Source of the DNA: Schaalia odontolytica
GTDB lineage: Bacteria > Actinomycetota > Actinomycetes > Actinomycetales > Actinomycetaceae
Direction: 5' to 3'
NCBI RefSeq assembly: GCF_005696695.1
Contig: NZ_CP040006.1
Coordinates: forward strand, 2,220,001 to 2,252,000
Length of the DNA stretch: 32,000 bases
Part shown: piece after piece, positions 18,958 to 22,900 of the stretch
How positions within the stretch are numbered: position 1 is the stretch's first letter
Layout of the letters: the number at the start of each line of letters is the position of its first letter
The notes under the pieces: model-generated
The model's database searches: none
What the model was told of the DNA's origin: nothing
What the model saw: the letters and a program-made list of their open reading frames with translations, nothing else
Made by a program: the position numbers and the translations under genes

Positions 18958-18967
18958 CGAACGGCAC

Positions 18968-19041
18968 CGGGGTGTGGCGCAGCTTGGTAGCGCGCTTCGT
19001 TCGGGACGAAGAGGCCGTGGGTTCAAATCCCGCCACCCCGA
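18968..19041 (+). tRNA. tRNA-Pro (anticodon CGG), copy 1
   Basis: I folded the cloverleaf by hand: acceptor CGGGGTG/CACCCCG, D arm GCGC/GCGC, anticodon stem CTTCG/CGAAG with loop TTCGGGA, T arm GTGGG-TTCAAAT-CCCGC, and discriminator A. Confidence 0.95.
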
Positions 19042-19047
19042 CCGGTA

Positions 19048-19081
19048 GTCGCCGGGACCGAAAGGTCCCGGCGACTTTTGT
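19048..19081 (+). terminator. Intrinsic terminator after tRNA-Pro copy 1
   Basis: GTCGCCGGGACC-GAAA-GGTCCCGGCGAC forms a 12-bp stem followed by TTTTGT. Confidence 0.8.
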
Positions 19082-19180
19082 ATAGGCGCTATGCTCAGAA
19101 TCACTGACCAATGGGTCGAAAGAGCATAATCGCCCATTAGACTGAGGTCGTACCCATCACTCACTTTGAGGAGAATCTTT

Positions 19181-19699
19181 ATGAAGCGTCGTCTTGCAGC
19201 AGCTCTGCTCATCGTCACGCTCCCCCTGGGCATGGCAGCATGCCACGGCACGAAGTCCCGCAAGGCCACTCCGAGCACCCCGGCGCCCGCGGCGACCGCC
19301 AGCGCTGATCCGACGCAGGCCCCCGGTCCGACCCAGGCCCCCGCCGCCACGCAGGCCCCCGGCAACTCCAGCCAGTCCGTCGACCAGGCTTGCGGCCTGA
19401 TCACGGACCAGATGAAGACTTTTACCACGAGCTTCGACAGCGTCAATGACGAGGTGAAGCAGAAAGCAATCGTTGACACCACCATCGAGACGCTCAACTC
19501 GCCGAAGATCACCAACCCTGAGGTCAAGCAGGCTTCCAGCAACGTGGCCACTGTCCTGACGGACATCCTGGCCTACGGCAAGAAGTACGAGTCGAACCCG
19601 AGCGCTGCCGATCAGAACGAGGCCAACGAGCTCATCGCGCGCCTCGGCACCTCGCTACTCTCGCTGAACGACCTCTGCCCCGGGATTGTGGAGAAGTGA
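19181..19699 (+). CDS. Small secreted lipoprotein, family member A
   Basis: GAGGAG lies 8 nt upstream of ATG 19181. The lipobox is LPLGMAAC. A TQAP x3 linker is followed by a helical domain with Cys at QACG and LCPG and the motif KITNPEVKQ. Confidence 0.8.
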   Translation: MKRRLAAALLIVTLPLGMAACHGTKSRKATPSTPAPAATASADPTQAPGPTQAPAATQAPGNSSQSVDQACGLITDQMKTFTTSFDSVNDEVKQKAIVDTTIETLNSPKITNPEVKQASSNVATVLTDILAYGKKYESNPSAADQNEANELIARLGTSLLSLNDLCPGIVEK

Positions 19700-19736
19700 C
19701 GCACACCTACGTCATCTCACCGATCAGGTAGTAGAT

Positions 19737-19765
19737 GGAGGGGCGGCCCATCGGGCCGCCCCTCC
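19737..19765. terminator. GC hairpin copy 1 between convergent lipoprotein genes A and B
   Basis: GGAGGGGCGGCCC-ATC-GGGCCGCCCCTCC forms a 13-bp perfect stem. No T-tract is present on either side. Confidence 0.6.
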
Positions 19766-19791
19766 AACGCTATGTTCGACTCAGTGACTAA

Positions 19792-20205
19792 TCAGTGCTG
19801 GTATCCGCACTTGTTGAACAGTTCCGTCTGCTTCGCGCTGAGATCCTCCATAATCTTCTGGTATTCCTCGAGCTTCTGGACGTCCATGCTCATCGGATCC
19901 GCCTTCAGAACACCCGAGTTGTCAGCAGCGGCACGCCATCCAGCAGCGACCTGATCGACGGACTCTTTAATCTCCTTGTTGGTGATCTTCTTAGAGGCCT
20001 CTTCGTAGGTGGTGGCAAACGTGGTGTAGGTGTCGGCGATGTTGGCAGCGTCACCATTCTGTGCTGAATTCACGAGGGCGAGGCCCGCGTCATTGAGAGG
20101 CTTCTCGAGCAGCTTGCAGGCGTCAGCCTTCGACTGGGACCCACACGCGGCCATGCCGAGAGGGAGAAGGGTCACGAGGATCGCGGCGGCGATGCGGCGC
20201 TTCAT
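19792..20205 (-). CDS. Small secreted lipoprotein, family member B
   Basis: AGGAG lies 7 nt upstream of ATG 20205. The lipobox is LPLGMAAC. Cys residues occur at DACK and KCGY, and the motif KITNKEIKE is present. Confidence 0.8.
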   Translation of the reverse strand: MKRRIAAAILVTLLPLGMAACGSQSKADACKLLEKPLNDAGLALVNSAQNGDAANIADTYTTFATTYEEASKKITNKEIKESVDQVAAGWRAAADNSGVLKADPMSMDVQKLEEYQKIMEDLSAKQTELFNKCGYQH

Positions 20206-20470
20206 ATGTTTGCTCCTTGATGTGTTGATGATGGATGCTCTTCGAGCCTATCGACCTACGAGAGCCTGACTCAACGGTCAGAGCGTGCCTCTGCTCACAC
20301 ATCGAAAGGCCATAAATATCGACACACACGAACGGTGACCACGGATGACCAACAGCCATCATAATTACCCTCTCAAATTGAGCAAGAGTGCCGACTCGCG
20401 ACCTCCGTCGACGATCTCACCAACCTGTGCAGCGTGGACAAGTAAGCAACCACTGACTCATGGCAACGCA

Positions 20471-20740: not shown

Positions 20741-20746
20741 CCGGTA

Positions 20747-20780
20747 GTCGCCGGGACCGTTTGGTCCCGGCGACTTTTGT
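20747..20780 (+). terminator. Intrinsic terminator after tRNA-Pro copy 2
   Basis: The 12-bp stem is the same as after copy 1, with loop GTTT instead of GAAA, followed by TTTTGT. Confidence 0.8.
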
Positions 20781-20879
20781 ATAGGCGCTATGCTCAGAAT
20801 CACTGACCAATGGGTCGAAAGAGCGCGATCGCCCATTAGACTGAGGTCGTACCCATCACTCACTTTGAGGAGAATCTTT

Positions 20880-21365
20880 ATGAAGCGTCGTCTTGCAGCA
20901 GCTCTGCTCATCATCACGCTCCCCCTGGGCATGGCAGCATGCCACGGCACGAAGTCCCGCGAGGCCACCCCGAGCACCCCGGCACCCGCCGCAACCGCCA
21001 ACGCCAACCCGTCGCAGGCCCCCGGCGCTTCCAACCAGTCCGTCGACGAGGCCTGCGGCGTTGTGCAGACCCAGATGAAGCCATACATCGACGCCGGCAA
21101 CAACGACTCCAGCAACACCGCGCAGCAACTGATAGCTGCTGAATCCACCATCAACGGCCTGAATTCTGCGCAGATCGGCAACCCCGACGTGAAGCAGGCG
21201 GCCAGCAAGTTTGCCGCGGCCCTCACGGATGGGATTAACTTCAGCAAGAAGTACGGGCCAAACCCGCCTGCCGCCAACCAGCAAGAGTATAAGCGATTGG
21301 TGCAGAACCTGATCGACTCCGTGGCCTCTCTGCAAAAGCTGTGCCCCAGCATCCAGTTGTACTGA
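20880..21365 (+). CDS. Small secreted lipoprotein, family member A'
   Basis: It has the same RBS and signal peptide as A (MKRRLAAALLIITLPLGMAAC). Cys residues occur at EACG and LCPS, and the motif is QIGNPDVKQ. The track start at 20790 is upstream of the conserved RBS. Confidence 0.8.
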   Translation: MKRRLAAALLIITLPLGMAACHGTKSREATPSTPAPAATANANPSQAPGASNQSVDEACGVVQTQMKPYIDAGNNDSSNTAQQLIAAESTINGLNSAQIGNPDVKQAASKFAAALTDGINFSKKYGPNPPAANQQEYKRLVQNLIDSVASLQKLCPSIQLY

Positions 21366-21403
21366 CGCTCGCCTGAACATTCATTCATCGATCACGTAGT
21401 GTT

Positions 21404-21432
21404 GGAGGGGCGGCCCGATGGGCCGCCCCTCC
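21404..21432. terminator. GC hairpin copy 3 between convergent lipoprotein genes A' and B'
   Basis: The sequence is GGAGGGGCGGCCC-GAT-GGGCCGCCCCTCC. Its left flank (ATCACGTAGTGTT) resembles that of copy 1 (ATCAGGTAGTAGAT). Confidence 0.6.
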
Positions 21433-21476
21433 TCACTCAACGCCCGCACGCGGGCACATACATCTGATGTTGCTCG

Positions 21477-21842
21477 TCAGCGCGCGTTGCACACCGTCTC
21501 AAGCGACGACATTGACGTCGCGAGGTTCGTGTACAGATCCATAGCCTCAGTCATCTGCTCTTGCGAAGGTTCGTCTCCCACCGTCTTGGCGAAATCAGCG
21601 AGAGCCTGAGCACTATCGCCCGCAGCCACCGCAGCAGCCTTCACTTCCGAGTTGGTAATCTCGTCAGACTTCAGGACAGTCGCAACGCTGCTCATACCCT
21701 GGACCATGTCTTCCGTGTTGCTCGGATCAAGGCCATCAATTGCCTTGACGGCCTTGTCATTGATGATCTGACAGGCAGCCTGCTTGGACTGCCCACCACA
21801 GGCGGCCAGGCTCAGGGGCAGCAGTGCAACGAGGCTCGTCAT
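21477..21842 (-). CDS. Small secreted lipoprotein, family member B'
   Basis: The lipobox is LPLSLAAC. Cys residues occur at AACQ and VCNA, and the motif EITNSEVKA is present. I checked the frame codon by codon against the sequence. Confidence 0.8.
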   Translation of the reverse strand: MTSLVALLPLSLAACGGQSKQAACQIINDKAVKAIDGLDPSNTEDMVQGMSSVATVLKSDEITNSEVKAAAVAAGDSAQALADFAKTVGDEPSQEQMTEAMDLYTNLATSMSSLETVCNAR

Positions 21843-21901
21843 CTACTCAGTTGAGAACCGGACGCGGGGACCAGTGCTCGTCCCGCCCCGGCCTCGTCTA
21901 T

Positions 21902-22900
21902 TTAGGCCTGTCCGCCGTTCTTCCAGCGACGGAAGAACATGGCCAGCAGCGCGCCGGACAGGTTATGCCACACGGAGAACACAGCTGCCGGGAGCGCGGT
22001 CTCCGGGGTGGAGGCGAAGTGGGTCTTCGCCAGCGTCGCGGCCAGCGCCGAATTCTGCATGCCGACCTCGATTGCGGTCGTGCGCGCCGCCTTGTCGGAG
22101 CCACGGCCGACGCGTCCGGCCAGGTAGCCGAAAAGGTAGCCCAGGAGGTTGTGGCAGATGACAACCGCAATGATGAGAGCGCCAGACGTCAGGATCTTGT
22201 TAACCGAGCCAGACACGACGACCAGCAGCACGTAGCAGATACCGAACACGGAAATCCAGGGGAGAAGCGGCAGGATCTTCTCCACGAACTTGCCAGCGAC
22301 GAAGCGCACGATGAAGCCGCCCAGGACGGGGGCGAGAACCATCAGCAGGATGTTCTTCGCCATCGCCGCGCCATCCACCGGCATGCGATTACCCACCAGC
22401 CAGGCGGTGAGCAGCGGCGTCATGAGGGGTGCGAGCAGCGTCGAGATCGAGGTCATGGTGACCGACAGCGCGACGTCAGCCTTCGCCAGGTAGGAGATCA
22501 CGTTCGAGGCCGTACCACCGGGCGCACAGCCGACGAGGATGACGCCGACCGCGACCGCGTCGGGCAGACCAAACACGTAGCACAGGGCCCAACCGACGAG
22601 GGGCATGATCAGGTACTGGGCGACAACACCCACGAGCACGGGCAGCGGACGCTTGACGATAAGCCCAAAGTCGGGCAGCGTCAGGGTCAGGCCCATGCCG
22701 AACATGATGACACCGAGCGCCCAGTTAACGCCGGGGGCCAGCGGCTTGAAGGTGTCGGGCGTGATCATAGCGATCGCGAAGGCCGCCAGGATCAGCAGCG
22801 GGAAGACCGTGACGGCGATGCGCGCACTTCGGTCTTCGGAGGAAAGGACGGGGGATTGAGTTGTAACTGCGTCTGATGTGGACATGCCACCATATTTCAC
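21902..22900 (-). CDS. Bile acid:sodium symporter (BASS/SBF) family transporter
   Basis: The polytopic 332-aa protein carries BASS-like segments (GLTLTLPDF, GVILVGCAPGGTASNV, AIEVGMQNSALA). The start is GTG 22900 or ATG 22885. Confidence 0.85.
   Translation of the reverse strand: MKYGGMSTSDAVTTQSPVLSSEDRSARIAVTVFPLLILAAFAIAMITPDTFKPLAPGVNWALGVIMFGMGLTLTLPDFGLIVKRPLPVLVGVVAQYLIMPLVGWALCYVFGLPDAVAVGVILVGCAPGGTASNVISYLAKADVALSVTMTSISTLLAPLMTPLLTAWLVGNRMPVDGAAMAKNILLMVLAPVLGGFIVRFVAGKFVEKILPLLPWISVFGICYVLLVVVSGSVNKILTSGALIIAVVICHNLLGYLFGYLAGRVGRGSDKAARTTAIEVGMQNSALAATLAKTHFASTPETALPAAVFSVWHNLSGALLAMFFRRWKNGGQA

Follow-up and report, generated by a model that had tools for sequence, protein, structure and literature searches.

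How one genome came to carry, side by side, two units of the same layout whose ends are nearly identical and whose lipoprotein genes are strongly diverged is the question raised by this locus in Schaalia odontolytica XH001. The window, which is the whole stretch of DNA analyzed, covers 32,000 nt of the chromosome (NCBI RefSeq assembly GCF_005696695.1). Within it, a set consisting of a tRNA, a plus-strand lipoprotein gene, a hairpin, a minus-strand lipoprotein gene, and a symporter 3′ end is present twice, head to tail (18967–20666 and 20667–22010; Table 1), as a sequence-only reading of this DNA had proposed. There is a single novel junction, where the symporter interior (right end of the segment) is fused to the 5′ end of the tRNA (left end). 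Two direct repeats accompany this arrangement: D1 (18967–19266 vs. 20666–20965; 300 nt, 97%), which agrees with the near-identity described for some 300 nt after the tRNA, and D2 (20547–20673 vs. 21884–22010; 127 nt), whose 92% identity equals the value given for the symporter fragment. Both tRNA genes are identified as tRNA-Pro(CGG) by ARAGORN; the reported identity of the two copies is correct, but their length is not, the match being 76/76 rather than 74/74. An equivalent of the promoter-like site 5′ of the first tRNA was sought 5′ of the second and not found, and this second copy is probably silent.

Over their full lengths, unit 1 (1699 nt) and unit 2 (about 1337–1345 nt) match in 1075 of 1766 aligned columns (61%). 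The gap in length largely reflects a 250-nt deletion in unit 2; owing to it, a 265-nt spacer and a third hairpin are found in unit 1 only. The strong divergence noted for the mature lipoproteins is evident in amino acid identities of 57% for A/A' and about 27–36% (local alignments) for B/B', and an 18-nt TQAP-type unit occurs in three copies in A and, as had been noted, in only one in A' (21008–21025). The octamer CCGGGGTG was said to stand at the left boundary, the junction, and the right boundary, and it does so, on the plus strand, at 18967, 20666, and 22003. As it occurs eight times in the window against 2.9 expected, the octamer alone is not rare; its weight comes from where it stands, namely at each parental site and a single time at the junction.

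Table 1. Features of the tandem units and their borders in XH001 (window positions)
Feature	Position	Strand	Basis
Promoter-like site TTGGGA-18-TATACT, 5′ of tRNA-Pro copy 1	18928..18957	+	consensus match only
Octamer CCGGGGTG, left parental site, tRNA position −1 to +7	18967..18974	+	sequence match
tRNA-Pro(CGG) copy 1	18968..19043	+	ARAGORN
Terminator-like hairpin with T tract, 3′ of tRNA copy 1	19047..19076	+	
Lipoprotein A, 172 aa; lipobox, TQAP x3 linker (19309–19362), two-Cys helical domain	19181..19699	+	
GC hairpin 1, between convergent A and B	19736..19766	.	
Lipoprotein B, 137 aa; modelled as lipid-anchored four-helix bundle	19792..20205	−	
Spacer 5′ of B, presumed B promoter region; collinear with single-unit A-B loci	20206..20469	.	
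GC hairpin 2; directly 3′ of full-length symporter gene in single-unit A-B alleles	20470..20500	.	
Symporter 3′ fragment: 18 nt past stop, stop 20565–20567, about 35 codons	20547..20673	−	
Octamer CCGGGGTG at novel junction, symporter interior / tRNA 5′ end	20666..20673	+	
tRNA-Pro(CGG) copy 2, identical to copy 1	20667..20742	+	ARAGORN
Terminator-like hairpin 3′ of tRNA copy 2; loop TTT, not AAA	20746..20775	+	
Lipoprotein A', 161 aa	20880..21365	+	
GC hairpin 3, between convergent A' and B'	21404..21433	.	
Lipoprotein B', 121 aa; 5′-truncated allele, starts MTS...	21477..21842	−	
250-nt deletion point (vs. G053 and other relatives)	21834..21835	.	
Intact sodium/bile-acid-family (SBF/BASS, PanS-like) symporter gene	21902..22900	−	
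Octamer CCGGGGTG, right parental site within symporter gene	22003..22010	+	

All four lipoprotein genes encode members of one uncharacterised family, modelled as two-cysteine four-helix bundles and predicted to be lipid-anchored; the lipobox L-P-L-[GS]-[ML]-A-A-C is kept in all four and in their homologues. B' is the shortened member: its counterpart in relatives has 127 aa and starts MKKRLLTAA..., and the 250-nt deletion removed the GC hairpin 3′ of the symporter gene, the B' promoter/RBS region, and the first B' codons, leaving B' without a basic n-region. The symporter scores 151 bits against PF01758 (cut-off 24.3) and 269 bits against the NCBIfam PanS profile; since the latter is under the equivalog cut-off of 400, the protein is described as PanS-like only and its substrate is left unassigned.

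The sequence-only reading had allowed for an assembly error with a collapsed or expanded repeat, and a chimeric join was considered as well. Short-read assemblies of G004 and G013, the best relatives in a first search that later yielded closer ones, do break at this locus, and one Logan contig (L093) has an odd join at the palindromic hairpin. However, the 2016 Illumina/SPAdes draft of XH001 (LLVT01000001.1), assembled by a different route, agrees with the window base for base over 12,486 nt, and the same junction is present in seven metagenome assemblies from other samples (L085–L088, L091, L092, and L101) that represent three different cassette combinations in different flanking backgrounds. 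We consider an artefact extremely improbable.

Conserved ends around a diverged middle invite an explanation by duplication followed by rapid divergence or gene conversion, and the sequence-only reading had offered these two processes. Population data suggest a third possibility, in which pre-existing alleles were joined in tandem or later swapped in; synonymous divergence and comparison with single-unit alleles discriminate among these readings. In relatives the units are not at unlinked positions, which the sequence-only reading had named as a refuting outcome, but occupy one position as alternative alleles. A comparison across 75 species representatives showed a single tRNA-Pro, with the number of cassettes ranging from zero to at least six, and the junction in this XH001 genome only. 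A locus that adjoins a tRNA gene and differs between strains might recall a tRNA-targeted integrative island, but its variable content consists of paralogous lipoprotein genes only, and a survey of ORFs and Pfam domains for an integrase or other mobility gene returned none. The repeat moreover takes in the whole tRNA from its 5′ end, unlike a 3′-end att repeat, and an island was rejected as having practically no likelihood.

Both units have near-identical free-standing counterparts elsewhere. Unit 1 (18967–20673) matches the single-unit loci L104 and L108 at 99.65% over 1,707 nt, with six mismatches and no gaps, through the octamer, and unit 2 (20666–22010) matches the single-unit locus L084 at 99.85%. 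The A protein is 100% identical to that of single-unit strains L104, L107, and L108, and the exact A' protein is also found in L084. The exact B protein occurs in 393 collection blocks, nine of the ten contexts shown being single-unit loci; metagenome contexts were retrieved with the window's own proteins as queries, and haplotype frequencies are therefore biased. The symporter fragment differs from the resident gene at ten positions, all of which are states of another natural full-length allele, and it is identical (127/127) to the full-length gene of L104, L108, and L112. The unit-1 block of tRNA, UTR, and signal peptide is likewise identical to that of L104, L108, and L112, and the corresponding unit-2 block equals that of L084 but for one site; each block thus matches its own free-standing allele, which argues against conversion between the XH001 copies. 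A conserved 5′ block with a divergent body also appears when single-unit alleles of different strains are compared.

Values of dS lead to the same reading of the bodies. In the mature domain of A/A', dS is 0.70, and in B/B' it is 1.5, as compared with 0.18 in the shared 5′ block and 0.05–0.36 in flanking genes between species; the bodies are therefore older, not faster-evolving. A recent duplication within this lineage, with bodies then diverging quickly and ends converted or not, would be in keeping with the octamer signature, the tandem layout, and the fairly high dN/dS of the A-type mature domain (0.45–0.88). It is contradicted by a body dS that is four to eight times that of the ends, by a fragment whose differences all belong to another allele, and by bodies that recur with little change in single-unit alleles of other strains and species; the ends, too, are no closer within XH001 than between strains. 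We regard such an origin as very improbable, and neither gene conversion at the ends nor rapid diversification of the bodies, as first suggested, is upheld.

These data indicate that the XH001 pair represents two distinct alleles, both still in circulation, of a single lipoprotein locus with high variability, that their divergence predates the join, and that the join is one illegitimate crossover at an 8-bp match. The sequence-only reading had also proposed illegitimate recombination at the microhomology, and this proposal is well supported by the octamer at both parental sites and the junction and by the near-identical units of L101. With moderate confidence, we favor a model in which two pre-existing alleles were stacked head to tail by homology-facilitated illegitimate recombination (HFIR). 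The stretch from tRNA-Pro(CGG) to the symporter is a cassette locus. Members of a single small lipoprotein family occupy it, their number ranging across the genus from zero to at least six, and homologous recombination keeps many old alleles in circulation. The first allele in XH001, A-B, extends ~100 nt into its own symporter gene and ends at CCGGGGTG. A complete A'-B' allele comes directly after it and begins, at the 5′ end of the tRNA, with this octamer. In the founding event, DNA of another strain would have entered by one-sided homologous recombination, its far end being joined at the microhomology, and a single step would have sufficed to stack two unlike alleles. The other two-unit haplotypes with this junction may have been produced afterwards, through homologous exchange with single-unit alleles.

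Such exchange complicates the history. Recombination has made a mosaic of the surrounding 25 kb, with 84–100% identity per 500 nt to each relative; to the right of the junction the window is 97–100% G053-like to about 25,000, unit 1 is G067/L104-like, the left flank is non-discriminating, and the symporter-fragment haplotypes are themselves mosaic among strains. The near-identity of the XH001 units to L104 and L084 could stem from later exchanges and not from the founding event. A plain intrachromosomal tandem duplication followed by replacements is also to be weighed: in a G053-like tRNA-A-B'-symporter ancestor, the octamer would once have been the site of unequal exchange or of replication slippage. 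Two identical units would have formed first; homologous recombination with other alleles would then have replaced the A body, the XH001 lineage would have lost its entire unit-1 cassette to another in this way, and unit 2 would have undergone the 250-nt deletion.

Near-identical units, such as a fresh duplication should leave, are found in L101 only. With the exception of the A body and the 250-nt deletion, its units are 97–100% identical across tRNA, UTR, signal peptide, hairpin, B', and symporter end, and its 300-nt blocks are identical, rare variants included, exactly as a duplication predicts. Unit 1 of L092 also has a B'-type gene, the undeleted B' in unit 2 of L085 fits a deletion after duplication, and homologous exchange is pervasive at the locus. 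However, about 6 of 120 sites distinguish the symporter fragment of L101 from the end of its full symporter gene, which makes L101 itself a mosaic whose identical blocks could reflect local conversion, and at least two extra replacement events would be needed to reach XH001, where allele stacking needs one step. In addition, G077 and G048, of two other species, have G052-type and G073-type alleles stacked on either side of what is left of a symporter gene, where the breakpoint is another one and a second tRNA is absent; this is an independent event of the same kind, and it joins two unlike alleles. We judge a simple duplication to be possible, though short of an even chance.

With this arrangement, XH001 would have four lipoprotein variants instead of two, and recombination between the 300-nt or 127-nt repeats could restore either single-unit form. 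The interval from tRNA-Pro(CGG) to the BASS-family transporter gene is a previously undescribed recombination hot spot in oral Schaalia, a cassette locus whose contents, in the models obtained here, are lipid-anchored four-helix bundles of an unannotated family, in many old alleles. Drawing on orphan immunity arrays, one might propose that the lipoproteins are strain-specific surface determinants under balancing selection and that stacking at the tRNA-Pro locus adaptively widens the repertoire, although we think this unlikely. Phages or the Saccharibacteria epibiont TM7x might use them as receptors or meet them as decoys, or the candidate role might be protection against envelope-targeting toxins of competitors; if the surface-determinant proposal were true, the locus would be a candidate host-range determinant in a model TM7x host. 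XH001 is the laboratory host of TM7x, and strain-variable surface lipoproteins would be reasonable knock-out targets there.

Variable surface-lipoprotein loci, such as those of the mycoplasma Vlp/Vsp type, combine a conserved 5′ leader and signal peptide with divergent mature domains. The Schaalia locus resembles them in its conserved 5′ UTR and signal peptide, abrupt drop in similarity, variable-number linker repeats, and several paralogues per locus. It differs in that its diversity lies between strains and is maintained via recombination, and in that the predicted disulfide-stapled four-helix bundle is an unrelated fold; at the locus, neither an invertible promoter nor a homopolymer tract was seen that could act as a phase-variation switch.

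Microhomology-mediated, RecA-independent tandem duplication is known in bacteria, with examples reported (PMC3411829; PMC11111574). Such duplications share with XH001 a head-to-tail repeat, a junction joining right to left end at a few shared bases, and long repeats that make the arrangement unstable. In XH001, by contrast, the units are 61% identical and each corresponds to a different free-standing allele; origin of both units from one parental segment is not what the XH001 sequences indicate, whereas it largely fits L101.

Allele stacking that leaves gene remnants is a described process (PMC5361080), of which the two-allele stack in XH001 is a clear example. As in Vibrio cholerae T6SS orphan immunity arrays and Rhs/CDI C-terminal displacement (PMC5361080), alleles are stacked beside a conserved anchor with remnants between modules, and homologous allele replacement is commoner than stacking. 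In Schaalia, however, the remnant belongs to the conserved transporter gene on the flank, and the stack includes an entire tRNA gene. A search for a toxin or secretion gene next to the cassettes in the surveyed loci found only lipoprotein genes between tRNA and symporter, and none was present beside distant homologues in two other genera, where the neighbors are housekeeping genes.

HFIR itself has been described in Streptococcus pneumoniae, Acinetobacter baylyi, and Pseudomonas stutzeri, where the new DNA has ordinary homology on one side and, on the other, a short GC-rich microhomology at which the join is made (PMC3240628). Linear PCR fragments have been used for allelic replacement in XH001 in the laboratory (PMC11032452). 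As in HFIR, the XH001 junction is an illegitimate join at a GC-rich 8-bp match, CCGGGGTG, with allelic DNA added beside resident DNA. It differs in that the Schaalia case is drawn from genome comparison and in that the "foreign" DNA is allelic to the resident locus, which gives a product that mimics a tandem duplication.

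The window covers 2,220,001-2,252,000 of a complete 2.36-Mb genome; the locus within it consists of two tandem units: unit 1, with tRNA-Pro copy 1, lipoprotein genes A and B, hairpins and a symporter 3' fragment, and unit 2, with tRNA-Pro copy 2 and lipoprotein genes A' and B', running into the intact symporter gene. An octamer common to the symporter interior and the tRNA 5' end stands at both parental sites and at the junction between the units, and every element of this arrangement as described in the sequence-only reading was confirmed. The two tRNA copies are fully identical (76/76, where 74/74 had been counted). 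The near-identity of the block beginning at the tRNA, the similarity of the symporter fragment to the resident gene and the strong divergence of the unit middles were likewise borne out; alignment is poor between the conserved ends, and 1075/1766 aligned columns match overall.

Features of the two tandem units, in window positions
Feature	Position	Strand	Detail
tRNA-Pro(CGG) copy 1	18968-19043		
tRNA-Pro(CGG) copy 2	20667-20742		
300-nt direct repeat	18967-19266 vs 20666-20965		97%; tRNA, its terminator, 5' UTR, signal peptide of next gene
127-nt repeat	20547-20673 vs 21884-22010		92%; symporter 3' end
Octamer CCGGGGTG	starts 18967, 20666, 22003		
Lipoprotein A	19181-19699	+	
Lipoprotein B	19792-20205	-	
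Lipoprotein A'	20880-21365	+	
Lipoprotein B'	21477-21842	-	

Assembly artefact was assessed by agreement between independent assemblies. GenBank record LLVT01000001.1 belongs to a 2016 draft, sequenced with Illumina and assembled with SPAdes, of XH001 (Actinomyces, now Schaalia, odontolytica subsp. actinosynbacter), which hosts the Saccharibacteria epibiont TM7x (PMC4742689). Over 12,486 nt it agrees with window 14880-27365 at every base, so the same arrangement is present in a second, differently produced assembly, and the organism is XH001 or a strain that cannot be told apart from it. The junction also occurs in contigs of other strains. A set of 31 strain loci from isolates and human metagenomes was assembled from contigs encoding exactly A', exactly B or a 127-aa B'; because these were retrieved with the window's own proteins, the haplotype counts are not frequencies. 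Their flanking genes are several percent removed from XH001 (e.g., the YwiC-family protein is 87-98% identical), so the contigs represent different strains. Single-unit and two-unit forms both exist among them, and the junction is identical in all two-unit haplotypes; it is real, heritable, and polymorphic in the population. An exact 20-mer scan for the junction in JGI metagenome contigs returned five matches, all in unrelated actinobacterial tRNA-Pro contexts without related genes; these are chance matches, since the tRNA 5' half is widely conserved and just five upstream bases needed to match.

Haplotypes among strain loci (L numbers denote individual loci or contigs)
Form	Arrangement	Loci
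Single-unit	tRNA-A-B-symporter	L104, L107, L108, L110, L111
Single-unit	tRNA-A-B-X-symporter	L105, L109, L112, L113
Single-unit	tRNA-A(G053 type)-B'(127 aa)-symporter	9 loci: L094-L100, L102, L103
Single-unit	tRNA-A'-B'(121 aa)-symporter	L084
Two-unit	A-B, then A'-B'(121)	XH001, L086, L088, L091
Two-unit	A(G053 type)-B, then A'-B'(127)	L085
Two-unit	A(G053 type)-B'(127), then A'-like-B'(121)	L101; L092 in part
Two-unit	junction present; unit 1 interrupted by contig end	L087

A further contig, L093 (Logan contig of SRR26142733), reads B(+)-hairpin-B'(-) at 1-900, with B inverted beside B' and flanks 100% identical to XH001. Hairpins 1 and 3 have a 32-nt exact palindromic stretch in common, so this contig reflects either a k=31 graph switch or a fraction of the culture in which the segment bounded by the hairpins is truly inverted.

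Both units of XH001 have close free-standing counterparts. Unit 1 (18967-20673, 1707 nt) matches the single-unit loci L104 and L108 at 99.65% (6 mismatches, 0 gaps), with the match extending up to and across the octamer, and unit 2 (20666-22010, 1345 nt) matches single-unit L084 at 99.85%. Ten sites distinguish the symporter fragment from the resident gene. Seven of the fragment's states also occur in genes of other species, and all ten occur in the full-length symporter of L104, L108, and L112 (127/127 match); the fragment bears no signs of decay. For A/A', dS is 0.18 over the signal and linker portion that the two share and 0.70 over the mature domains; for B/B' it is 1.5, and for flanking genes between species it is 0.05-0.36. 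Had positive selection followed a recent duplication, dN and not dS would be elevated, so the common ancestor of the lipoprotein bodies is much deeper than that of the ends. The dN/dS ratio for these pairs, a check proposed earlier, says little about positive selection because dS is near or beyond saturation; dS itself is the informative quantity.

The conserved 5' block followed by a sharp drop in similarity is a trait of the allele family, seen equally between single-unit alleles: A compared with the A of relative genome G053, a single-unit locus, gives a dS of 0.056 in codons 1-45 and 0.586 in the mature domain. Within XH001, the 300-nt blocks are not homogenised; that of unit 1 is identical to L104, L108, and L112, and that of unit 2 is the L084 block but for one site. 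These data indicate that the divergence of the units is almost certainly older than their join. Thus, from the interpretation offered by the sequence-only reading, the illegitimate, microhomology-mediated junction stands, but its two accounts of the mosaic do not: gene conversion at the ends conflicts with blocks that each match different single-unit strains, and rapid diversification of the bodies conflicts with the near-identical free-standing alleles and the high body dS.

Among 75 species representatives of the genus, the junction of fragment and tRNA is found in this genome only, and every complete locus examined among relatives has a single tRNA-Pro(CGG). The interval from tRNA to symporter in relatives contains from none to at least six same-family genes in varying orders and orientations; this variable content marks the locus as a cassette site. 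Arrays of six or seven same-family lipoprotein genes in one orientation, also between tRNA-Pro and symporter gene (L066 of G065, 1797-5161; G064:C25:15734-18697), far exceed the pairs of S. odontolytica strains. Compared segment by segment, all of unit 1 (UTR, A, hairpin 1, B, spacer, hairpin 2) agrees at 90-98% with the single locus that G067 carries, and in unit 2 agreement with the single G053 locus is 99-100% for the UTR, B', spacer, and symporter gene. Across the surrounding 25 kb (window 3500-29000), identity to each of four relatives is 84-100% per 500 nt, and the best-matching of these four species representatives changes from segment to segment. The region is a recombination mosaic, and in this Schaalia clade homologous exchange appears to cross the 95% ANI species boundaries pervasively.

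The four lipoproteins belong to one family, with a lipobox of the form L-P-L-[GS]-[ML]-A-A-C, two more invariant cysteines, and an I-x-N-x-[ED]-[VI]-K motif in each. No Pfam or NCBIfam model represents this family, with just sub-threshold, mutually inconsistent matches returned. An AlphaFold model of B (mean pLDDT 82.8, pTM 0.74) predicts a four-helix bundle carried by a lipid-anchored tether, in which the conserved cysteines sit where helix 1 begins and helix 4 ends; a Foldseek search of this model against the PDB recovered generic helical bundles alone, all with E > 0.7, and no function could be assigned. XH001 has exactly four family members, all at this locus, and 5/151 genomes sampled across the order contain a family match. 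The flanking gene encodes an SBF/BASS symporter that is PanS-like, scoring under the cut-off of that equivalog. B-type genes are under purifying selection (dN/dS 0.07 vs G067); A-type mature domains are much less constrained (dN/dS 0.45-0.88), and the repeat number of the A-type P/T/Q/A linker varies. After the lipobox, this linker carries TQAP x3 in A (window 19309-19362) and one unit in A', as had been read from the sequence, and QAPG x6 in G049; the A-type genes compared for repeat number and unit were L059 (G049), L060 (G032), and L056 (G050). This variation suggests that an 18-nt or 12-nt repeat has undergone slippage.

In the UTR upstream of A, a -10-like CATAAT (19125-19130) corresponds to CGCGAT upstream of A' (20824-20829) and in G053-type alleles; if the former is the lipoprotein promoter, alleles may differ in expression. 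The literature searched for XH001 yielded nothing on these lipoprotein genes. The idea of an immunity array gained no support: toxin and secretion genes are absent both from the locus and from the neighbourhood of distant homologues in two other genera. One distant homologue, from another genus of the order (L114 of G163, 4477-7213), lies directly upstream of an L,D-transpeptidase (YkuD + PG_binding_4) gene, a possible hint, from a single case, of a cell-wall-related role. As a working guess held with low confidence, the lipoproteins could be strain-specific surface proteins kept polymorphic by balancing selection.

The arrangement suggests several consequences. A promoter-like site (18928-18957) lies upstream of tRNA copy 1 only; copy 2 instead follows the symporter fragment read in antisense and may therefore be silent. 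In unit 2, 250 nt present in G053 and all other relatives are missing between 21834 and 21835 (compare L100:5375-5600): a GC hairpin that followed the symporter gene, the first codons of B', and the region with its promoter and RBS. B' now begins MTS..., not MKKRLLTAA..., and lacks the basic n-region of a signal peptide; it follows the symporter gene at a distance of 59 nt, and no hairpin separates the two. The sequence at the deletion joint, ACGAG-G-CTCGT, forms a palindrome and shows no evident microhomology. This deletion allele is common (L084, L086-L091, L101), with the full form kept in L085. The repeats suggest that the two-unit form could collapse, through recombination between the 300-nt blocks to A'-B' or between fragment and gene to A-B; both products occur as free-standing haplotypes.

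The joining of symporter interior and tRNA 5' end at an 8-bp match is a case of illegitimate recombination. As to how it arose, we consider one-step allele stacking somewhat probable: DNA from a strain with one allele would recombine with a chromosome holding the other, with one end settled by homology and the other at the octamer, that is, by homology-facilitated illegitimate recombination (HFIR; defined in PMC3240628). In the left flank, inspected for such an anchor, the window resembles G053 and G067 to the same degree, and the region is mosaic throughout. The XH001 arrangement equals an L104-type allele truncated at the octamer plus an L084-type allele and takes one event under stacking; it would take three under a more doubtful history, in which plain intrachromosomal duplication of a G053-like locus was followed by cassette replacement through ordinary homologous recombination. 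The duplication history is favoured by L101, in which the two units share 97-100% identity over tRNA, UTR, signal peptide, hairpin, B', and symporter end, differ just in the A body and the 250-nt deletion, and have rare variants common to both 300-nt blocks. However, the L101 fragment and full symporter end also differ, at ~6 sites, and stacking has occurred independently in G077 and G048, where a G052-type unit (A-B-X-hairpin-symporter remnant) is joined to a G073-type unit (Y-B'-symporter); both observations, like the smaller number of events, favour one-step stacking. The remnant in these two genomes (L055 of G077, 3340-3620; L061 of G048, 2790-3010) has a different breakpoint, lacks a second tRNA, and carries an internal deletion of ~74 nt at a CCAGCG-type match. 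Across strains the fragment shows mosaic haplotypes, and the full-length gene of L091 bears part of the XH001 one; this indicates that the fragment still recombines like any homologous segment, which blurs the founding state. Events of this kind, whether allele stacking or tandem duplication at a cassette locus that recombines, are already known; this locus and its lipoprotein family are new as instances. A process similar to the HFIR-type stacking considered here has been proposed for the stacked immunity genes with effector remnants of Vibrio cholerae (PMC5361080).
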